Shown piece by piece: positions 2,452 to 20,000 of a stretch of 20,000 bases of DNA. A program made the position numbers and the translations under genes. This DNA is from an uncultured virus (IMG/VR IMGVR_UViG_3300046506_000102) (Duplodnaviria > Heunggongvirae > Uroviricota > Caudoviricetes): IMG/VR virus record IMGVR_UViG_3300046506_000102, one strand, 5' to 3'. Position 1 is the first letter of the stretch. Each line of letters opens with the position of its first letter. The notes under the pieces were generated by a model. That model ran no database searches. It was not told the DNA's origin and saw nothing but the letters and a program-made list of their open reading frames with translations.

Positions 2452-2808
2452 ATGATGCTGCGCTTAAAAGACGAAACCACCGATCACGACACGTTGCATT
2501 TCGCCATTGAACGCGAGTGGAAGCGCGATCAAGTTCAGCGCGATTTCTGGCGCGATCACGGATGGGGCAAGTTCTATATTCCTCCGATCGGAGGGCTGAC
2601 CGCAACCGCTATCGGCCCGGCTAATATGACGCATGATGACATCGGCCCGCAGCCCTGCGCATTCGCTCGATACGATCGGGAAACCGGCTTTATCGTTGTT
2701 ACAACGCCGCTCGATACGTCTTACAAATGGATGATTCCGCTTCGCTTCAATCCGTGGGGTATGATCCGGACGCCGCTAATCAACCCCACAAATCGAGGGC
2801 GCTATTGA
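2452..2808 (+). CDS. Hypothetical phage protein (118 aa)
   Basis: GAAGGTG RBS; TGATG coupling to the next gene. Confidence 0.65.
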   Translation: MMLRLKDETTDHDTLHFAIEREWKRDQVQRDFWRDHGWGKFYIPPIGGLTATAIGPANMTHDDIGPQPCAFARYDRETGFIVVTTPLDTSYKWMIPLRFNPWGMIRTPLINPTNRGRY

Positions 2809-3209
2809 TGACCGATAAACCGCCCTACGCGCGCAACTGCGCTTTCAATCAGTGTATCCAGCCCGCTATTTGCGACGCATCGCAGGCTTGTATCTGGAAT
2901 GCGAGCGACGTGCCGATGATTGAGGGAACGGTGATCGCGAAGCAAAGCAACCCGCTTGACGACACGCCAAAAGCCACGCCTACTCGCGTCGCATACATCG
3001 TGTGGAATGCTGCGCGCACCGAGGGCTATATCACCTTTGACCAACAAGTGGCGTATGAAGCGCGCAAAGGTGCTGAAAGCAATTGCTTCGATGAAGACGG
3101 AACGCAAATGAAACTCGCGCAAGCGTTCTGCGAAATTTACAGCGGTCACGAAGACGCAACGAAACAGATTGTTGTAATCAGCGAGCCGCCAGCGTATCCG
3201 GGGGATTAG
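2808..3209 (+). CDS. Hypothetical phage protein (133 aa, Cys-rich N-terminus)
   Basis: TGATG overlap at 2806-2810 with GAGGG RBS; converges on 3206..3589. Confidence 0.65.
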   Translation: MTDKPPYARNCAFNQCIQPAICDASQACIWNASDVPMIEGTVIAKQSNPLDDTPKATPTRVAYIVWNAARTEGYITFDQQVAYEARKGAESNCFDEDGTQMKLAQAFCEIYSGHEDATKQIVVISEPPAYPGD

Positions 3210-3589
3210 GACGGGCGAGGAATAAGCCCTTCGTCATAGCAGTAAGCCTGCATCTGCGACGCAACGCCTTCAATCCCATCCTTGGCGACGAAGCCCGGAA
3301 CGTTAGCGACGAATTCGCACACCGGGCAACGCTCCGAACCGTCTTCTTTCGGCATCATCACAGCAAGCCCGCCGCATTCGAGCGCGCTGTTCATCCAATG
3401 CCAATTCATTGACATCAGCGGATCAAACGGCGCGGCCTTGTGCGGTTCGGGATCACCGTTCTTTGCGGCTTCCAACTGCGCAACTTCGTTCGCAATTGCC
3501 GTTGCACCATCCTTCGCGATCAGCAATGACATGCCTTTGTTGTCGATTGCTTCGCGCATCATCGCCCAATGGTCTTTGCACATTCGCAT
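3206..3589 (-). CDS. Hypothetical phage protein, possibly Zn-binding (CxxH, CPVC)
   Basis: AGGA RBS; directly follows the SGNH gene on the same strand. Confidence 0.75.
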   Translation of the reverse strand: MRMCKDHWAMMREAIDNKGMSLLIAKDGATAIANEVAQLEAAKNGDPEPHKAAPFDPLMSMNWHWMNSALECGGLAVMMPKEDGSERCPVCEFVANVPGFVAKDGIEGVASQMQAYCYDEGLIPRPS

Positions 3590-3613
3590 GGGTAATTCCT
3601 TGAAGGGGGCGGA

Positions 3614-5044
3614 CTAGACAATGATCGCAGGGTTGAACACGCCGCCCGTGTTGAATAGCATGTTCATGGGCGGGCACTCATGGATGCCGTCACTTGTCGG
3701 CGGGTTGCAGAACATCGTTGTTGCACTGCCGATGGTGTTCGTGAGAGCCATGTTATAGGTGCCCGTCCCGCCAGTACCGGTTCCAAAGGTTTGAATTTGC
3801 TGAGCCGCGAGCCCACCAACCTCACTGATTGCTGTGTTGGCCGTCAAAGCACCACTAGCAACCGCCGATACCGTCATAGTTTTGGTGGCAATAGTCGCGG
3901 TGAATTGCGATGTGATCGTATCGACACGCCACTTACCGCTGTTGCGTGTAATCTCTGCAACGTCCGCAAATTCAAGGAAGCCGGAGACCCCTGCAATACC
4001 ACCCGCCCTAAGTAAATCGTTATAGGCGGTGCGTTGAGCTTCCTTGGTTGAGACAGTTTGGTTAGCCGTCGTCGAAAATGCGTCGGTGGATGTAGTAACA
4101 GGCGTGAGCGTGCATAAAAACGCAGGCTTTCCCGCAAGGTACTGCATCCCTAGAATGCTCTGCGCGTCGGAAACGCTCTGTGCGGGCGTCCTTGCAGGGA
4201 AGTTGTTGATACCAAGCTCATAGACGATGTGCGAACACCACTGAGCAAGCTCACGCTGCTTCGTGCTCTGCGCGATATAGTTAGGTGTTGACTGAGAATG
4301 CACACCGTCGTTGATGTACGGGAAGTAAGGCCCGATCGATCTAGCCAACTGTCCGGTGTCGGTTGATGCATCGTTGAAGAAATCAAGCGCGCCTTCAACA
4401 CGACTATCACCAAGCAAGAAGATCGCGGGAGTATTCGACGGTCCAATAATAGCAGCGGGACAGAAACCAGCATCACCGACTGTATTAGTGCTGGTGATCG
4501 TGCCGCCCATGGTTTGGTCGGTAAGCCCGGATGCCGCCTGCTTGAAGCGCTCACCGTTGAGTTCATCGCGACCACCATTGTAGATGGAAGCAACACCCAA
4601 AGCAGCCGGGGAATTGTTCAAAAACCCTGCGGCTGATTGCCAGAAGATGCGCACAAAGAACGCCGCACCTGCGGGGATACTTACTGACATCATGTCAGAT
4701 ACGTTGTTCGTGTTGTCGGGCAATACACCCGTTGCTGAGCCGCCGAAGGTGATTTGCGTAAACGTACCGTTGTACTCAAACGCTGCTGTAACAGTCGCCG
4801 TTCCACCTAGAGCATGTTCAGCCAAATCTTGGTGCTTCACCCACCACGTAGGAATAACAATAGCGGCCCTAGTGATTGTCGTACGCGCAATGTGCCTAGA
4901 CCGCGACATGACTTGATTGGTCGCGCCGAATGTTGCCGTGTTGTTTGGATGGCGTGAACGTGTAGCCAACTGTCGAATTGGCTTGCTCGCTCCACCAATG
5001 GGATCGAAAACGCCACCAATTTTTTGCGATGGTGCGAGTTGCAT
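3614..5044 (-). CDS. SGNH/GDSL hydrolase domain protein, probably virion-associated (tailspike-type esterase)
   Basis: Block I IFLLGDSRVEG, block II NDG, block III ELGINN, block V DGIH; Gly/Thr/Ala-rich beta-type flanking regions. Confidence 0.8.
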   Translation of the reverse strand: MQLAPSQKIGGVFDPIGGASKPIRQLATRSRHPNNTATFGATNQVMSRSRHIARTTITRAAIVIPTWWVKHQDLAEHALGGTATVTAAFEYNGTFTQITFGGSATGVLPDNTNNVSDMMSVSIPAGAAFFVRIFWQSAAGFLNNSPAALGVASIYNGGRDELNGERFKQAASGLTDQTMGGTITSTNTVGDAGFCPAAIIGPSNTPAIFLLGDSRVEGALDFFNDASTDTGQLARSIGPYFPYINDGVHSQSTPNYIAQSTKQRELAQWCSHIVYELGINNFPARTPAQSVSDAQSILGMQYLAGKPAFLCTLTPVTTSTDAFSTTANQTVSTKEAQRTAYNDLLRAGGIAGVSGFLEFADVAEITRNSGKWRVDTITSQFTATIATKTMTVSAVASGALTANTAISEVGGLAAQQIQTFGTGTGGTGTYNMALTNTIGSATTMFCNPPTSDGIHECPPMNMLFNTGGVFNPAIIV

Positions 5045-5072
5045 ATTCTAATCCCACTATTGCGAATTGCGA

Positions 5073-5639
5073 TTAGGCGAAATCGCCGCCGACCTTGTAT
5101 TCGGCGGATGCACCGTCAGCATTTTTCAACACGACAAGTGATCCGGATTGATATTGCGATGATGTTGCGGCACCGCCCGCTCGTTTCGTTGCGCCTGTAT
5201 CTGATGCAAGCGTGATCGTTCCGGTTGACCATTGCGCAAAGCCGACGTTGAACCCTTCCATAAGGGTGTTCGGCACGGTGATCGTCACGTTGGCGCTATC
5301 GTCGCAACGGAAGATTTTTCCGTTATCTTCGTTTTTGAGCGCAAACGATCCGGTGAAACCTTCGATGTTTCCGACTTCGGTTGCAGCGCTAAAGCCCGGC
5401 TTGGCGATGGTGTAAGTGAGAAAATCGGCAGCGCTCGCTTCGATCGAATATTCGCGACTTGTCGGGAATGGGCCAAACTTTTTCGATTGCCCTGCTGCGA
5501 TGTTCGTAAGCTGATAGCCGGTAAGGTTGTTTCCGATTTTGCGAACAACACCGGTTGCGAGGTTCTTTGACAAAACCGTCAACGTATATCCAGCCTCCAA
5601 CACAATCTTTTGCGATGAATTTGCGTTGATATCGGGCAT
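5073..5639 (-). CDS. Putative virion accessory / fibre-like protein (188 aa)
   Basis: GGAG RBS and own promoter; the C-terminal segment (EDNGKIFRC...VTITVP...GFNVGFAQWSTGTIT...QYQS...GDF) resembles C-terminal modules of phage fibre proteins. Confidence 0.6.
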   Translation of the reverse strand: MPDINANSSQKIVLEAGYTLTVLSKNLATGVVRKIGNNLTGYQLTNIAAGQSKKFGPFPTSREYSIEASAADFLTYTIAKPGFSAATEVGNIEGFTGSFALKNEDNGKIFRCDDSANVTITVPNTLMEGFNVGFAQWSTGTITLASDTGATKRAGGAATSSQYQSGSLVVLKNADGASAEYKVGGDFA

Positions 5640-5677
5640 GGCTGAAATCTCCGAAAAAAACTTATCTTACCAACGCA

Positions 5678-5705
5678 CCTATCTGATTTATGCCATGTGG
5701 TCAAT
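5678..5705 (-). promoter_or_regulatory. Duplicated minus-strand promoter, copy A
   Basis: 28 bp identical to 8431-8458; minus strand reads TTGACC-acatggcataaatcaga (17)-TAGGTG. Confidence 0.75.
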
Positions 5706-5721
5706 TACGGATAATTCGCAA

Positions 5722-6108
5722 TCAACTTGTTTTTTCAACCGGACTTGGTGGAATAACGCTAAGATCGATTTCGCCGATGAAGCCGCCATGAATGAGCGTA
5801 TAGGCGATGCGACCATGCGGCTTTGCGCTGCTATCCGCCATGCGCAAGCAATTCCCGGTAACGCCAGAGATCGCGCCGCAAATCGCTTTCACCAATTCAT
5901 CGGACGTGCTGACGTTGTGTTCGCGCCACGCAACAGCAACTAGATCGATATCGCGCTTTAGCGATCCATGAACCGCAACCGCGTAGCCGTGATGACGTGC
6001 GGCAATCCTGATCGGCGGTAAGATCGCATCAAGCAACGAACGGCAAAATGCGCCCGTTGCTTCGCGGATCGCTTCCGTTTGATCGCGCTTCACGTCATCA
6101 TCAGCCAC
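5722..6108 (-). CDS. Small nucleotidyltransferase-fold-like phage protein (128 aa)
   Basis: GYAVAVHGSLKRDIDLVAV (hGS...DxD) plus a later IDLSV strand, Pol-beta NTase-like; GTG start. Confidence 0.6.
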   Translation of the reverse strand: MADDDVKRDQTEAIREATGAFCRSLLDAILPPIRIAARHHGYAVAVHGSLKRDIDLVAVAWREHNVSTSDELVKAICGAISGVTGNCLRMADSSAKPHGRIAYTLIHGGFIGEIDLSVIPPSPVEKTS

Positions 6109-6111
6109 GGG

Positions 6112-6204
6112 CTAACCCGTATTCCAGTGCTTTTGCAACCACTTCGCGAGCGCTGGCAGCACCATCAGAAACGCGACGATCAACACAATGATGATCAACG
6201 TCAT
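6112..6204 (-). CDS. Membrane micropeptide (30 aa, MTLIIIVLIVAFLMVLPALAKWLQKHWNTG)
   Basis: GGGGA RBS; fills the gap between neighbouring minus-strand genes; one hydrophobic helix. Confidence 0.55.
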   Translation of the reverse strand: MTLIIIVLIVAFLMVLPALAKWLQKHWNTG

Positions 6205-6224
6205 CGGGTTTTCCCCATATGATG

Positions 6225-6551
6225 CTAAGCGAGAACCGGCACGCGAGCAGAGGGATGGCCCGCGTCTTCGTGGAAGTCGCCATTTTTATCCACGAAACCA
6301 GAGATCAAATAAATGGCGATCACCTTTTCATCGAGATCGCTGTTATGATCTTCGACCCCACCATAAATATGGTAGTCGATACCCATAACCGTTTTATCGA
6401 ATTCGACATCATCGATCGTCACTTTCACCTGCTGCTTGGCGAAAAGCTCGTCAAGAGCATCTGACAATTTCTGCTGATCCACCTTGATAGGTTTGTCACC
6501 ATCGATGATGTTGTTAACGATCGCGATCGCTTGCGCTTTATCGAAAGACAT
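6225..6551 (-). CDS. Hypothetical acidic phage protein (108 aa, MSFDKAQ...)
   Basis: GAGGA RBS before ATG at 6551, just after the stop of 6563..7921. Confidence 0.7.
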   Translation of the reverse strand: MSFDKAQAIAIVNNIIDGDKPIKVDQQKLSDALDELFAKQQVKVTIDDVEFDKTVMGIDYHIYGGVEDHNSDLDEKVIAIYLISGFVDKNGDFHEDAGHPSARVPVLA

Positions 6552-6562
6552 TTCTAATCCTC

Positions 6563-7921
6563 TCAGAACGAATTGCGCTTGACGACTTGACACTGCTGCG
6601 CGCGAATTGTCGGAGCATTCGCACCGGACGCTTGCACAATGAAGCGATAGGAAATGAACGCACCCGCGCCTTTCGTTTGGATTTGATATGCAGGCGTGCG
6701 GAACGTGACGTAATAGCCTTCGGTTCCTAGTGCGATATTGTTCAAAGGGATCAAATCGCGCAGGATGAAAGTCGTGGTGCCGTCGTTGTACTGCAATTCG
6801 ATGTAGCAGCCCGCGATTGCAACACCAGCATCAATCACGGCAGCGCCAACACCTTCGATGATATCGCCGATGTTGATGTTACCGATTGCCGGGTCTTGTT
6901 GAAGACGAATAAGATCACCAGCCGCCGACATGGTACACGCCAAGACGCATTCCGATCCGGGCGCACCGTTGGCCGGAGCAGCATTGACCGACGCCGCAAC
7001 ACTCTGCGTTCCGCTGCCACCGGAACGAAGCGCCGTCCAGCTTCCGGGTGGCGTTCCCGTTGAACCCGCGCCGTTGGTGCCGCCAGTGGTGACGAATAGC
7101 GGATTGGCGAGCAGGTTACGCAACGAGATCGATGGAATTTCGGTAACATCAGAAGGCAGGAACGACACTGCGGGCCAATTCGCCTGAATATACGCCGCAC
7201 GGGCGACACTGAGATAATACGCACCCTTGTTGCTATCATGCGTGCCGCTACCAACACTTTCCTGCATGTAGCCGGATTTCATGCGGATGGTCGTCGTGGT
7301 CGATGCGGTCGGATCGTGCGACGCGGCCCAATCATCGATCAAGTTGACGCGTGCATCGCCCTCATACGCATCGCGACACAGACGATTATACTCAATGCCC
7401 GTCGCGATTTGTGCCGCAGTGTAGTTCTCTGCGCAGCGATCTAGATTGAGCGAGACGACTTGACCACCCATGCGGAAAAAGCGATCGATCGCGTATTGAG
7501 CGAAAGAAAACTCAACCGCTGCGACGTTGGCAAGGGTCACAGCAACGCCTTGGTTTGGAAGCGCGGGCCAACGGCTAGGCCAACCCGACTGCACCACCGT
7601 TGTATAGCCTGCAACGGCAGGACCGGGGGCGTTGACGAAACATTCCAATATCATATGGCCGGGTTTCAACGCGAGCAGCGTCGGCAACCGCGCAATCATC
7701 TGGTCGCCGCGCTCACCGCTCACACCGCCGTTGTATATGAACTTGAGCCTATGTCCGCTGCGTGCATTCGCAAACGTCCACGTATTGTAGCCGCTAACAG
7801 TCGTTGGCACCAACGCGCCAGCCGTTACCGTTTGGCTGGAATACATCTGCGCCATGCGACTATTACCAAGCGTGGCAGTCCTAGACCGTGCCCAAGCCGC
7901 ATCGAAAGTGTTGACGTTCAT
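6563..7921 (-). CDS. SGNH-like hydrolase with C-terminal beta-sandwich/carbohydrate-binding-like region, probably virion-associated
   Basis: Block I ATLGNSRM (GNS variant), block II GGVSGERGDQM, block III ECFVNA, block V SGTH; C-terminal region begins NLLANPLF...PPGSW. Confidence 0.7.
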   Translation of the reverse strand: MNVNTFDAAWARSRTATLGNSRMAQMYSSQTVTAGALVPTTVSGYNTWTFANARSGHRLKFIYNGGVSGERGDQMIARLPTLLALKPGHMILECFVNAPGPAVAGYTTVVQSGWPSRWPALPNQGVAVTLANVAAVEFSFAQYAIDRFFRMGGQVVSLNLDRCAENYTAAQIATGIEYNRLCRDAYEGDARVNLIDDWAASHDPTASTTTTIRMKSGYMQESVGSGTHDSNKGAYYLSVARAAYIQANWPAVSFLPSDVTEIPSISLRNLLANPLFVTTGGTNGAGSTGTPPGSWTALRSGGSGTQSVAASVNAAPANGAPGSECVLACTMSAAGDLIRLQQDPAIGNINIGDIIEGVGAAVIDAGVAIAGCYIELQYNDGTTTFILRDLIPLNNIALGTEGYYVTFRTPAYQIQTKGAGAFISYRFIVQASGANAPTIRAQQCQVVKRNSF

Positions 7922-7922
7922 T

Positions 7923-8105
7923 TCAACTTGTTCCTACAGCTATGGTGATACGTTGTTCATCACCGTTGATGTCGGTGACTGTCTCAAATTGCTCAACACC
8001 ATCGATATCGGTGACAGTCACGAACTGTTGGCCGGATGGGGGATTATTCGTTCCACCGATTGGAGCGGTCACGCTGCTGATATCGAGGCCAATCCCGATC
8101 CGCAT
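7923..8105 (-). CDS. Small protein (60 aa) with MRIGIGL N-terminus and an internal 12-aa tandem repeat
   Basis: QFVTVTDIDGVE/QFETVTDINGDE repeat; packed between neighbouring genes. Confidence 0.7.
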   Translation of the reverse strand: MRIGIGLDISSVTAPIGGTNNPPSGQQFVTVTDIDGVEQFETVTDINGDEQRITIAVGTS

Positions 8106-8110
8106 TGCGA

Positions 8111-8398
8111 TTAACTCGCGGCTTTGATGTTGATCACCGCGCCACGCTTGGCAAAGATCGGGTAGGAAACGCCACCGCTCGGAATGGGAATGCCGTTGAC
8201 GTTTGCGTCCGGTGCGCCGAGATCAACCGCAGCGAGTATCATTCCGCTTTCGGTGTTTCCGATGATGATAAATTCGTTGTCGGATACCTGATCGGTGCTT
8301 GTCGCGCCGACTGCGAGCGATACGGTTTTCCGAACCTGATGAATTCCGGACGCTGAACCGGATGCTTTCGGAGTGCAGAAAGACACATAGGCGGGCAT
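8111..8398 (-). CDS. Small beta-rich hypothetical protein, possibly virion-associated (95 aa)
   Basis: GGAG RBS; first gene after duplicated promoter copy B. Confidence 0.7.
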   Translation of the reverse strand: MPAYVSFCTPKASGSASGIHQVRKTVSLAVGATSTDQVSDNEFIIIGNTESGMILAAVDLGAPDANVNGIPIPSGGVSYPIFAKRGAVINIKAAS

Positions 8399-8430
8399 GG
8401 CAAATCTCCGAAAGGTGGCTACCCTTCGCG

Positions 8431-8458
8431 CCTATCTGATTTATGCCATGTGGTCAAT
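8431..8458 (-). promoter_or_regulatory. Duplicated minus-strand promoter, copy B
   Basis: Identical 28-mer to 5678-5705; both copies are followed by the same TTTCGGAGATTT RBS segment. Confidence 0.75.
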
Positions 8459-8474
8459 CACGAACGGTTGCCAA

Positions 8475-8672
8475 TTAACCGTTTTCGCTATCAACGCTCA
8501 TAACGCCGACTAAGACGCTATAGCGCACACCATCCATTTCGAAATTCCATGATGCTTTCGTGCTCGGTGCCATCTGATGAATTTTGCGAACACGATCGGC
8601 CATTTCCACAATCTTGAAACCGATTTGCGCAGCATCATCGATCGCTAGCAACGTCGCATCTTGATCAGCCAT
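8475..8672 (-). CDS. Hypothetical phage protein (65 aa)
   Basis: Starts 2 nt after the terS stop with a GGGGG RBS. Confidence 0.7.
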   Translation of the reverse strand: MADQDATLLAIDDAAQIGFKIVEMADRVRKIHQMAPSTKASWNFEMDGVRYSVLVGVMSVDSENG

Positions 8673-8674
8673 CG

Positions 8675-9298
8675 CTAACCCCCAATCTCACGTGCATAAA
8701 GCGCCGCCGCCGCATCTTCGTCGATACCATTCGGCAACATCGTGGCTTGTGACGGCTGAACCGACTGCTCTTGTTTGAGCCAATGCGCGTTGTTGTCAGT
8801 CAACAATCCCTGATAGCGCATCATATTGCCAAGCGCGGCCAACTTGTCATGCAACGTGAACTTGATCTTTTTGCCACCGCGCGGCTTTTCTTCGATCTCG
8901 ATAGACTTGACCGCTTCCATCATTTCAGGCGTGCAATTAGCGAAATCGGGTTCGGGTTCGCCCCACTCGTTGATTTTGACGTAATTGCTGATGTTCGAAT
9001 ACGCGATGACGGCGTTTGCCTTCAACGTCCGCATAATCGAAATATCGTACAGTTCCGATAGCTCTTTCACCCGTTCAGCAATCGCAGCGCGGACCATGGG
9101 GCGCGCAAGCATCGCAACGGCCCGCTGATCCAATTCCCAAGGGAACGGCTGCTGTAGGACCGCTAGAAGCCGTTGGCCGGTCTTTTCCGCGATGCCCTCG
9201 ATATCCTTCACATACCCGTCAACGAACTTCCGTTCCCATTGGTCGATTTGACCATAGGCCGGGCGGAAATCCATCGGTGGCGTAATCGGCGCAAGCAT
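8675..9298 (-). CDS. terS: Phage terminase small subunit
   Basis: ERKFVDGY...AMLARPMVRAAIAER...RTLKANAVIAYSNI...KIKFTLHDKLAALGNMMRYQGL matches the typical TerS pattern; same strand as, and upstream of, terL. Confidence 0.82.
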   Translation of the reverse strand: MLAPITPPMDFRPAYGQIDQWERKFVDGYVKDIEGIAEKTGQRLLAVLQQPFPWELDQRAVAMLARPMVRAAIAERVKELSELYDISIMRTLKANAVIAYSNISNYVKINEWGEPEPDFANCTPEMMEAVKSIEIEEKPRGGKKIKFTLHDKLAALGNMMRYQGLLTDNNAHWLKQEQSVQPSQATMLPNGIDEDAAAALYAREIGG

Positions 9299-12601: not shown

Positions 12602-12996
12602 CAAGCACAGCAGACAGGCGCACGGCTTGGCAGGAAGCAGCGATTGCATGGGCGTGTTGCGCATCGATCCATCGCGAGTATGCAAAGGGCCGCGATCCGC
12701 TCTTTACAACGCGACAAGCCGATTACGTGAAGCACGAACAGCACGCGCGGGAAATGGATCAACGCGATTTGCACGCATCACCGGGAAGCCCCGATATTGT
12801 CATTGTTGCCAATGATCCGGGCGACGTGAAAGATTTTCTAGTAGGACACTTGCGCGAACAAGCATCGATCCGCCGACGACAAGCAGCGCTTGCGAGGATA
12901 AAGACCGATGCGCGATATTACACCGGAATTGCTAACAACCTAGATTTCATCGCCAATCAGTTAGCGCGGGCAACGATGCGAGGCGACGGCGAATAA
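12598..12996 (+). CDS. Hypothetical phage protein (132 aa)
   Basis: AAGGTG RBS; coupled start. Confidence 0.72.
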   Translation: MTSTADRRTAWQEAAIAWACCASIHREYAKGRDPLFTTRQADYVKHEQHAREMDQRDLHASPGSPDIVIVANDPGDVKDFLVGHLREQASIRRRQAALARIKTDARYYTGIANNLDFIANQLARATMRGDGE

Positions 12997-13071
12997 TCGC
13001 TTGACCATGTGGTAAGTTTGTGCGATCGTCCGCCCGCTCACTTAGCCATGGGCAGGACGTTGGGAAGGTGG

Positions 13072-13111
13072 AATGCCGCCAGTGTGTCGCCGCACTGGCG
13101 GCATTTTCTTT
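13072..13111 (+). terminator. Intrinsic terminator
   Basis: AATGCCGCCAGTG...CACTGGCGGCATT 13-bp stem then TTCTTT. Confidence 0.8.
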
Positions 13112-13146
13112 GTTGACCACATGGTTAGATCGTGAGACTATTTCAC

Positions 13147-13232
13147 GGTTCGGAGTGGTTTCCTTGGCTACACCGGGCGTTTCCTCCCTTAGACTTTCAA
13201 CCCCGCGCACCCCAATGCGCGGGGTTTTTTTT
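13147..13232 (+). ncRNA. alpha-r8 / MmgR (suhB)-like small RNA
   Basis: Own promoter (TTGACC 13113, 17 nt, GACTAT 13136); 5' hairpin with TCCTT loop; core GGGCGTTTCCTCCCTTAGACTT (13175-13196) matching the recalled family core GGGUGUUUCCUCCCUAGACUU; terminator AACCCCGCGCA-loop-TGCGCGGGG-T8. Confidence 0.75.
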
Positions 13233-13284
13233 ATCTGTAACAAGCATCCCGAACGGATTGTAACAATCCGTGATGCACCATCGC

Positions 13285-13339
13285 TTGACCATCGCAATTA
13301 TCATCGCTATAAACAACGCATCAACACGGAGCGGCGACG
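13285..13339 (+). promoter_or_regulatory. Repeated promoter plus leader, copy 3
   Basis: TTGACC-atcgcaattatcatcgc-TATAAA-caacgcatcaacacGGAG. Confidence 0.85.
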
Positions 13340-13495
13340 ATGACAAAGCGGCAGATTACCATTCGGTTCACCACCGATAAGAACGGAAAACCCCGTGCCC
13401 ATTATTGGGGTTTGGCCCGCCGTTGGTTGCCGATCGGCATTGACGAAGCAAAGTTGAAGATCGCAACCGGCGAAGCCGTGGAACAGGAAAAGTAA
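13340..13495 (+). CDS. Microprotein (51 aa, MTKRQITIRFTTDKNGKPRAHYWGLARRWLPIGIDEAKLKIATGEAVEQEK), paralog of 18362..18586
   Basis: GGAG RBS after promoter copy 3; not in the ORF track; aligns with 18362..18586. Confidence 0.8.
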   Translation: MTKRQITIRFTTDKNGKPRAHYWGLARRWLPIGIDEAKLKIATGEAVEQEK

Positions 13496-17105: not shown

Positions 17106-17160
17106 TTGACCGGATGGAAAGCAGCCGCTACAAATAACGCATTAACAACGGGGAACGGCA
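17106..17160 (+). promoter_or_regulatory. Promoter plus conserved leader
   Basis: TTGACC-ggatggaaagcagccgc (17)-TACAAA-taacgcattaacaacGGGG. Confidence 0.8.
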
Positions 17161-19227: not shown

Positions 19228-20000
19228 CTAGTACCCCTGCCACATCGCAAATTCTTCAACACGCGCGTTGCGATCAATTGCGTATAGGTCGGCGCGAGCA
19301 TCCTTGTTTTCCGCGAAGTACGGACGCGGCGCGCGGCCAACATGGTGATAACCGAGCGTTTCGCAGATGGTGCCCAACGTCTTCGCGGAGACGTTGCGGA
19401 CGGGCGTTCCCTTGATCCGGTTCGCTACTGCCTGCGAGCTAATCCAGCCGCCACGGAAGCCCGGCAGCGCGTCCGCGATGGCGTCTAGGATGGCGATCTC
19501 AACCGGCCCGCGCGACTGCCGCACGGCTTCCGGAGTTGACGTGGTGTCGGGCGCACGCATCGGAATGGCCCCGCGCTCGATTGGGTAGTTCAGCAACCAA
19601 TGCGCAATGTATCGATCGCCGCCGACGTTCAACCACCCGTCATAGAACCAATCGAAATAACGCTTATCCATGCCGCGCTTTTCCAAGTCTTCTTTCGACT
19701 GCAACGCGCTGTAGAAGATCGCAAAGCGACGGCTGTTCTTATCGATCGGGATAGCGTCTTTGTGGTTGCTAAAGAAAATCCAGTTGGCCGGGTTGTCTTC
19801 AATATCCTGATCAACGCCCTTGCCCTGAATTTCGATCGTGTCTTCTGAAATCATCGGCTTTAGAATTTCAATCATGTCGCGGCGTTCGTCGGTTTTGATT
19901 TCGTCAACGATGATGAACAGCTTTGAACGCATCCACGCGTTGAACTTCGAACCGCTTTCGATTAGCTCGCGCGCCTTCGGTTCGTACGTGTACATTTTAC
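19228..20000 (-). CDS. Primase-associated SF3 helicase (NrS-1/DUF5906-like), C-terminal part; gene begins beyond the right edge
   Basis: SKFNAW...LFIIVDE (Walker B)...LKPMISEDTIEIQGKGVD...ANWIFFSNHKDAIPIDKNSRRFAI (motif C and Arg finger); frame open to the window edge. Confidence 0.88.
   Translation of the reverse strand, partial: KMYTYEPKARELIESGSKFNAWMRSKLFIIVDEIKTDERRDMIEILKPMISEDTIEIQGKGVDQDIEDNPANWIFFSNHKDAIPIDKNSRRFAIFYSALQSKEDLEKRGMDKRYFDWFYDGWLNVGGDRYIAHWLLNYPIERGAIPMRAPDTTSTPEAVRQSRGPVEIAILDAIADALPGFRGGWISSQAVANRIKGTPVRNVSAKTLGTICETLGYHHVGRAPRPYFAENKDARADLYAIDRNARVEEFAMWQGY

Follow-up and report, generated by a model that had tools for sequence, protein, structure and literature searches.

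Does a phage carry its own version of a regulatory RNA that belongs to its bacterial host? This question is raised by a short locus near position 13150 of the window, the 20,000-nt stretch of uncultured-virus DNA that we analysed. AlphaR8 is among the most widely conserved small RNA (sRNA) families of Alphaproteobacteria, and a first-pass annotation of the letters had proposed that the locus encodes an RNA of this kind, under its Rfam name suhB/mmgR. In the following, we describe the anatomy of the gene, its relation to the family and its surroundings, and then we weigh what such an RNA could do for a phage.

Anatomy of the sRNA gene

The alphaR8-type unit is located on the plus strand (13148-13232) and can be followed from promoter to terminator. 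Its parts are a hairpin at the 5' end, the mostly unpaired UUUCCUCCCU and a terminator (11 bp) that ends in a U8 run. The promoter-like site (13113..13141, +) consists of the -35 hexamer TTGACC (13113-13118), a spacer of 17 nt that opens with the phage box CCACATGG, and the weak -10 hexamer GACTAT (13136-13141). The 12-mer at its beginning is common to sites at 13001 (+), 8457 (-) and 5704 (-). This promoter was missed by a consensus scan, as its -10 hexamer agrees with the consensus at only 3 of 6 positions. We infer a transcription start near 13148, from which an RNA of ~85 nt is predicted.

In both the MFE and the centroid fold, the 5' hairpin (13148..13178, +) is formed by two 6-bp helices with a 1x1 internal loop between them, and it is closed by the loop UCCUU. 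With 12 bp in total, it is longer and stronger than the weak 4-bp hairpin of the family. An unpaired linker of 20 nt follows the hairpin and contains both UUUCCUCCCU and UAGACUU. At DNA level, the 10-mer reads TTTCCTCCCT (13180..13189, +); it is an exact match to the family core and corresponds to the conserved anti-Shine-Dalgarno seed. TAGACTT stands directly 3' of the 10-mer, within a segment UAGACUUUC (13190..13198, +) that has one extra U relative to the commonest form of the core, seen as a 1-nt insertion in the Rfam alignment. The intrinsic terminator (13199..13232, +) comes right after the core. A terminator scan and the fold agree on an 11-bp stem with 8 G-C pairs, a 6-nt loop and a U8 run, in which the hairpin covers 13199-13226 and the T-run covers 13225-13232. 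3' ends with such a U run typically bind Hfq.

The fold of the sRNA (87 nt) reaches -36 kcal/mol, compared with -22.3 +/- 2.8 kcal/mol for shuffled sequences (z -4.9), and 0 of 200 shuffles were as low. The mean unpaired probability of the 10-mer is 0.85-0.87 when the 5' end is set at 13140-13148, and 0.60-0.66 when it is set at 13150-13155. Every element that the first-pass annotation had listed (promoter, 5' hairpin, 10-mer, TAGACTT and terminator) is present in its place, and the single-stranded character that it ascribed to the 10-mer is reproduced by these probabilities. We rejected two ORFs that overlap the sRNA region (13020-13343, +, and 12947-13297, -); both of them cross two terminators, and neither has a PHROG match.

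Membership in the alphaR8 family

The family is represented in Rfam (release 15) by RF00519, named suhB and described as 'Makes More Granules Regulator RNA', with a gathering score of 41 bits. Its covariance model matches 13154..13239 (+) with 43.2 bits and an E-value of 4.4e-6, covering model positions 1-77 of 77, and the proposed suhB/mmgR identity is borne out by this test. RF00519 is the sole Rfam family that reaches its gathering score within the window, and it is the best clan member at the sRNA site. When the whole window was scanned permissively (E ≤ 0.05), the only further match was one to rli32 at chance level, with 30 bits against a cut-off of 100, and no tRNA genes were found in the window. 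In the alignment to RF00519, the core is exact, one U is inserted ahead of AGACUU, and the terminator is good. At only 2 bits over the cut-off, the score is the lowest among 18 above-cut-off matches outside bacterial genomes.

The 4-bp helix of the model is aligned to the sRNA with 2 non-standard pairs, and the stronger 12-bp hairpin with the loop UCCUU is found instead. The 5' stem-loop of suhB-like RNAs is described as variable or missing in the available part of PMC3346310, so the different 5' domain of our sRNA is within the known range of the family. Among the matches listed, 51 of 120 IMG/VR copies have a TCCTT motif that precedes the core by no more than ~20 nt. The study of alphaR8 RNAs in Caulobacter (PMC12559287, cited here and below from its available part) describes an internal single-stranded 10-mer for the family, and we find UUUCCUCCCU exactly at 13180-13189. 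The linkage to N-formylglutamate amidohydrolase, which applies to the primary chromosomal copy only, is absent, and the neighbours of the sRNA are phage ORFans. Paralogous bacterial copies of alphaR8 are also without this linkage (PMC12559287), so its absence here does not exclude membership. Taken by its sequence and covariance-model match, the sRNA is very probably a member of the alphaR8 (RF00519) family.

On the other hand, the suggested kinship with Caulobacter GsrN found no backing. The Caulobacter members of alphaR8 are SisA, SisB, SisC and SisD (SisA-D; PMC12559287), and the GsrN paper (PMC5869019), in its available part, never mentions suhB, Rfam or MmgR; likewise, GsrN is not mentioned in the available part of PMC12559287. 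GsrN is defined by a sigma-EcfG promoter, a position near sigT-phyR and an exposed C-rich 5' loop (PMC5869019, same part). A GsrN locus of the sigT-phyR type is absent around the sRNA, and the surroundings are phage DNA.

Phage context and the closest relative

We identified the genes of the window with PHROGs and Pfam. On the minus strand, they include the terminase large subunit (TerL, 1-1146), esterase/lipase-like and virion-like genes (3614-7921), the terminase small subunit (TerS, 8675-9298) and a DUF5906 primase (19228-19995). On the plus strand, many small ORFs without a family extend from 9.6 to 19 kb. Phage genes flank the sRNA on both sides, in agreement with the earlier claim that it is phage-encoded. 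TerL is 67% identical to that of Rhizobium phage vB_RglS_P106B and 63% identical to that of RHph_X2_24. In P106B, the same block of small hypothetical genes is located between primase and terminase, on the strand opposite to the terminase. Because this layout matches, we place the sRNA gene, in the same orientation, in the apparent early ORFan block of a Rigallicvirus-like siphophage. Rigallicvirus is a genus of Rhizobium phages, and the host, judged from these relatives, is probably a member of Rhizobiales. Megablast of the window against phage records gave no close match, and IMG/VR relatives were found neither with single-protein queries nor with the promoter pattern of the upstream unit described below. 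No integrase is found among the 33 ORFs of the window, and none is annotated among the 96 features of P106B.

The closest relative that we found is a phage region in a 201-kb MAG contig, referred to as L124. Its TerL is 77% identical, and the region is collinear with the window and more compact. In the contig (G001 C77, which holds L221, L124 and L220), GC rises from ~0.51 to ~0.65 only ~11 kb beyond TerL, and a full structural module would not fit into this distance. A scan of 24 ORFs of the contig revealed no integrase. The region may represent a defective prophage, or the contig may be chimeric. On another contig of the genome to which L124 belongs, there is a single canonical chromosomal RF00519 copy (74.3 bits), and a copy above the cut-off is present in 17 of 21 genomes when this genome and 20 relatives are considered together.

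The alphaR8 core is absent throughout the 21 kb of L124. No relation between the window and L124 is seen in the stretch that separates the terminator of the upstream unit from the following early promoter. We conclude from the missing core and the unrelated gap that the alphaR8 gene at this place is variable cargo. The cultured relatives P106B, RHph_X2_24, RHph_I72 and HMSP1-Susan were also searched, and RF00519 at E ≤ 0.01 was found in 0 of 4. An IMG/VR fragment of 4.9 kb whose TerL is related (L078) contains an RF00519 copy of 63.4 bits at a different position. As the sRNA is absent from L124 and from all four cultured relatives, it looks like sporadic, moron-like cargo by its distribution in these sequences.

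Directly upstream of the sRNA gene, the terminator scan and the fold revealed a second sRNA-like unit (unit 1; 13001..13112, +). Its promoter TTGACCATGTGG is of the same class, the RNA would be ~75 nt long, and the 17-bp terminator forms a hairpin at 13070-13107; the z-score of its fold is -4.2. Unit 1 belongs to no Rfam family and gives only chance-level matches at E ≤ 10. L124 has one such unit, which is syntenic and located on the minus strand (5098-5220), and its promoter and 5' part can be aligned to unit 1. The linker of the L124 unit has an unpaired CCUCC motif. We considered this unit as a degenerate alphaR8 member and rejected the idea, as it has no RF00519 match at E ≤ 10. From its sequence features, unit 1 is a candidate phage-specific sRNA.

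Promoter classes of the phage

The 12-mer TTGACCAYRTGG, which belongs to the TTGACCACATGG type, occurs exactly at 5693-5704 (-), 8446-8457 (-), 13001-13012 (+) and 13113-13124 (+). With three further sites at one mismatch (11023, 16000 and 18184), the window contains 7 sites where 0.35 are expected, and none of 200 shuffles has as many. The first-pass annotation had noticed that the sRNA promoter starts with TTGACCACATGG like two promoters on the minus strand, and the exact 12-mer at 8457 (-) and 5704 (-) confirms this observation. The annotation had read a hint of late expression into this shared start, which is not supported; the sRNA gene itself is located in the early-type ORFan block.

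The two minus-strand TTGACCACATGG sites both head operons within a 5.9-kb stretch (~2740-8656) between TerS and TerL. This stretch encodes SGNH-esterase/lipase-like proteins (476 and 452 aa) and one protein with a virion-protein-like C-terminus, and blastn finds no counterpart of it in L124. Directly next to the -35 hexamer stands a near-palindromic CCAYRTGG box, which is strongly over-represented in both phages, with 7 occurrences against 0.35 expected in the window and 5 against 0.38 in L124, where box sites are located at 5207-5218 and 5860-5871. The box may be an operator for a phage regulator.

The promoter class of the sRNA differs from the early-type element that is repeated in the window. 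This element (TTGACC, 17 nt, TATAAA, then GGAG and ATG) precedes small plus-strand ORFs at 13285, 14301, 15522 and 16063; a looser copy is found at 17106, and copies with altered -10 boxes at 1127 and 1507. The one at 13285..13342 (+), in which a GGAG site and the ATG of a 51-aa ORF follow TTGACC, 17 nt and TATAAA, forms the right-hand bound of the sRNA cassette. The promoter-plus-leader of the early type is ~45-75 nt long and is kept between the window and L124, which has many such sites.

Divergence of the phage copy

We compared the sRNA with ~207 sampled copies of the family. Over the full 87 nt, the closest of them share only 60-64 positions. The best local match is a 32-nt stretch (13175-13206) with 97% identity to two metagenome contigs that have the extra-U core and represent host-type copies. 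Identical copies of the 18-nt extra-U core occur in 87 metagenome contigs, with a terminator in 77 of 88 of their matches, and we regard this core as a natural variant. The long 5' hairpin is seen in none of the ~207 sampled copies, and among them we found neither a second copy of this variant nor a visible recent donor. Blastn with the sRNA region against phages and plasmids gave no match, and the closest core variant gave one weak and uninformative Methylobacterium match against plasmids. Judged by its longer 5' hairpin, the extra U, the low number of shared positions and the phage 12-mer promoter, the copy in the window is a divergent one. We also considered a chimera, in which the 5' arm would derive from phage sequence seen in L124, and rejected it, because no more than a 7-mer (E 2.6) is shared.

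Other copies in phages and viral DNA

The exact core is present in at least 120 IMG/VR contigs, a set that was gathered by this core and cannot measure the conservation of the seed. Among these 120 matches listed, a strict heuristic found a terminator with a U-run in 92 and the usual upstream hairpin in 84, and the matches represent 110 distinct contexts. Coordinates are available for 80 loci among the matches listed. Of these, 17 lie <1 kb from a contig end, while 41 lie at least 5 kb and 25 at least 10 kb from either end. We tested 17 of the 25 mid-contig loci (again among the matches listed), and 13 passed the Rfam cut-off. A PHROG scan of the flanks covered 12 of the 13, leaving out L053, which mirrors L050. 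Function-annotated phage genes flank the copy on both sides in 4 of the 12, on one side in 6 and on neither side in 2. In L011 and L045, an antiterminator, the sRNA and HNH/terminase genes follow each other in the same order.

Using a canonical copy as the query, we found matches in a cultured-phage collection, namely the Bradyrhizobium phages ppBeUSDA76-1 and ppBdUSDA122-1 and the 'Microcystis' phage Mwe-JY08. Two of the three pass Rfam, ppBeUSDA76-1 (OP596613) and Mwe-JY08 (PP395640), with 62.8 bits each, and ppBdUSDA122-1 does not. The records of all three have no RNA annotation for these copies. Overall, the RF00519 cut-off is reached in 15 of the 20 viral and phage sources tested, and the search of phage databases that accompanied the original proposal has thereby turned up further copies. 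Taken together, the viral contigs and the phage records without RNA annotation suggest that phage-borne alphaR8 copies are general. In the literature searched, we found no description of phage-borne alphaR8/MmgR copies; the work of Lagares et al. 2016 (Mol Phylogenet Evol), reportedly a phylogeny of the suhB/mmgR family, may bear on this point.

The copy of Mwe-JY08 (L123, PP395640) is located at 3995-4078, and a hypothetical CDS on the opposite strand overlaps part of it. The record gives a cyanobacterium as the host of Mwe-JY08, yet all other descriptions of the family come from Alphaproteobacteria. Two explanations offer themselves: a transfer of the gene, or an alphaproteobacterium in the culture as the true host.

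A putative mimic of the host regulator

What could such an RNA do for the phage? In Caulobacter crescentus, SisA is a member of alphaR8 that binds Hfq, and its 10-mer pairs with Shine-Dalgarno regions, as demonstrated by compensatory mutations (PMC12559287). When nutrients are plentiful, SisA represses many TonB-dependent receptors, transporters and metabolic genes, whereas under carbon starvation the sponge CrfA removes it; this control of a large nutrient-uptake regulon through the anti-Shine-Dalgarno 10-mer was reported in 2025 (PMC12559287). The Caulobacter sponge pairs with exactly the UUUCCUCCCU 10-mer (PMC12559287). In addition, MmgR without the 10-mer leads to over-accumulation of PHB (PMC12559287; PMC7143759, available part).

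By analogy with SisA, we propose the following course of events. The free-standing gene, a divergent alphaR8 member in the early ORFan block of a Rigallicvirus-related siphophage, would be transcribed from the phage-type promoter (TTGACC and then the CCACATGG box) into an RNA of ~85 nt with a stable 5' hairpin, an exposed UUUCCUCCCU and the U8 terminator. This RNA would bind Hfq, and the seed would pair with Shine-Dalgarno regions of host mRNAs and repress their translation. Candidate targets by analogy are TonB-dependent receptors, transporters and metabolic genes, as in Caulobacter, or PHB and phasin functions, as in S. meliloti. In this way, the phage could control a nutrient-status regulon of the host from its own promoter, independent of host signals, and may benefit from doing so. 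The RNA of the window retains the parts needed for the SisA mechanism, that is, the seed, the terminator and the U tail, and the host promoter is replaced by a phage one. Because these parts are kept and the promoter is swapped, we consider a phage-controlled mimic of the host alphaR8 regulator that acts on host mRNAs the most likely reading, with a probability of roughly 60% for the mechanism as a whole.

Several other explanations have to be weighed. The locus might stem from a host fragment that the phage captured and that has become neutral or is decaying, or it might be a mere terminator or insulator between early units; in either case, it would produce no trans-acting RNA of use. An RF00519 score barely over the cut-off, a weak -10 hexamer and the lack of conservation in L124 and in 4 of 4 cultured relatives are what one would expect of such a fragment, and the locus comes directly after another strong terminator and is part of a gap that is filled differently in the window phage and L124. 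However, neither the 10-mer nor the core next to it is damaged, although the full RNA resembles the closest sampled copies at only 60-64 of 87 positions; the seed remains unpaired, and a complete promoter-like site with the phage 12-mer is placed at the right distance. As unit 1 already has its own 17-bp terminator, a second one is not needed. We therefore regard a useless fragment or a simple terminator as unlikely. The first-pass annotation had also suggested that the RNA silences the phage's own early genes, as a timing switch that covers GGAG ribosome-binding sites. Early phage genes do use GGAG-type sites in the repeated leader, and the seed could in principle pair with them. The duplex energies speak against this idea: for 44 phage start regions, the mean is -11.0 kcal/mol with the seed and -11.5 +/- 0.9 kcal/mol with shuffled seeds, and the best phage site reaches -16.9 kcal/mol compared with -19.5 +/- 1.8 kcal/mol for shuffles. 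Since these energies are no better than those of shuffled seeds, pairing is not enriched at phage starts. Complements of the 10-mer with at most one mismatch are found in the window only at 368 and on the antisense strand of the gene itself, and self-regulation appears quite improbable to us.

The fact that the Caulobacter sponge pairs with exactly the 10-mer (PMC12559287) leads to another possibility, in which the RNA is a decoy that titrates Hfq or a CrfA-type sponge of the host; in a variant of this idea, the adjacent unit 1 is its sponge. Unit 1 has a G/A-rich stretch, and its duplex with the seed region reaches -19.5 kcal/mol, a value reached by 2.5% of 998 background windows. With structure included, however, the gain is -5.8 kcal/mol compared with -4.5 +/- 2.5 kcal/mol for shuffled unit 1, and 27% of the shuffles gain at least as much. 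The complementary stretch is partly inside the terminator stem of unit 1, and the L124 counterpart has CCUCC and not the G/A-rich stretch. We rejected unit 1 as a sponge, as it is no better than shuffles once structure is counted, and consider the decoy explanation as a whole very unlikely. Finally, the locus could reflect attP-type homology, in which the phage would insert itself into the alphaR8 gene of the host and restore it with the 3' part that it carries. The 32-nt stretch at 13175-13206, 97% identical to host-type copies, would suit such a site, as would the 17 of 80 located IMG/VR copies (among the matches listed) that lie <1 kb from a contig end. It is hard to reconcile with an integrase count of 0 of 33 window ORFs and 0 of 96 annotated P106B features, with a site that is internal and collinear in the relative L124, and with a full-length unit that has its own promoter. 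Integration at this site is the least credible of these explanations, and we give it hardly any weight.

Comparison with known systems places the proposed phage-controlled mimic of a host regulator among related RNAs. A close parallel for the proposed mechanism is SisA-D, the family members for which direct Shine-Dalgarno pairing, Hfq dependence and a sponge have been demonstrated (PMC12559287). In these RNAs, as in the sRNA of the window, a hairpin precedes the single-stranded UUUCCUCCCU, and a Rho-independent terminator comes after it. SisA-D are chromosomal and have unrelated host promoters (PMC12559287), whereas the gene of the window belongs to a phage and has the 12-mer promoter, a longer 5' hairpin and the extra U. 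MmgR of Sinorhizobium meliloti shares with our sRNA the RF00519 model and the anti-Shine-Dalgarno core followed by a terminator. In contrast to the copy of the window, MmgR is a single chromosomal copy under the control of NtrC and AniA that limits PHB accumulation (PMC7143759). The window's copy is without an MmgR-type context, and its best full-length matches are limited to 60-64 of 87 positions. The copies of ppBeUSDA76-1 and Mwe-JY08 resemble it as RF00519 members (62.8 bits each) inside phage genomes, but they are canonical, while the copy studied here is divergent and located in an early ORFan block. AsxR and AgvB of enterobacterial prophages are likewise independent phage sRNA genes that interfere with Hfq-dependent networks of the host (PMC12559287). 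They are anti-sRNAs (sponges) without homology to a core host sRNA, whereas the sRNA of the window is a homologue of a host regulator.

Implications and positions of phage-borne copies

As the sRNA belongs to a known family, it is not a new kind of RNA. Both the family and its mechanism are already known, and what is new is a member in a phage setting. If the proposed mechanism is true, such copies would let phages impose or hold the nutrient-replete translational state of the host, and TonB-dependent receptors and transporters could be shut off during infection or lysogeny. A phage copy expressed from a phage promoter could override the nutrient-uptake regulon. The copy of the window would then be an old, domesticated example, with a phage-specific promoter box and a rebuilt 5' domain, and it would offer a simple, testable case of host takeover through mimicry of a core host sRNA. 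Whether the capture of alphaR8 is a widespread strategy of phages of Alphaproteobacteria is a more tentative matter. We consider it possible, at somewhat less than even odds, that copies with exchanged promoters are found in many unrelated phages and at differing places in their genomes.

The positions of the copies do vary. They include the early ORFan block of the window, the leader of late genes upstream of HNH/terminase in other phages, and a site between head genes in L021. In the Bradyrhizobium phages OP596613 (L121, 4028-4108) and OP596612 (L122, ~4001-4064) and in the IMG/VR contigs L011 and L045, the copy is located in the gap just upstream of the HNH endonuclease/terminase genes. This late-leader position is recurrent and differs from the early ORFan block of the window. 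We also notice tRNA genes near two copies. In L046, three tRNA genes (1056-1346) are located ~1.6 kb upstream of the family copy, and in L023, one tRNA gene (2883-2953) is within ~50 nt of the copy, which scores below the Rfam cut-off.
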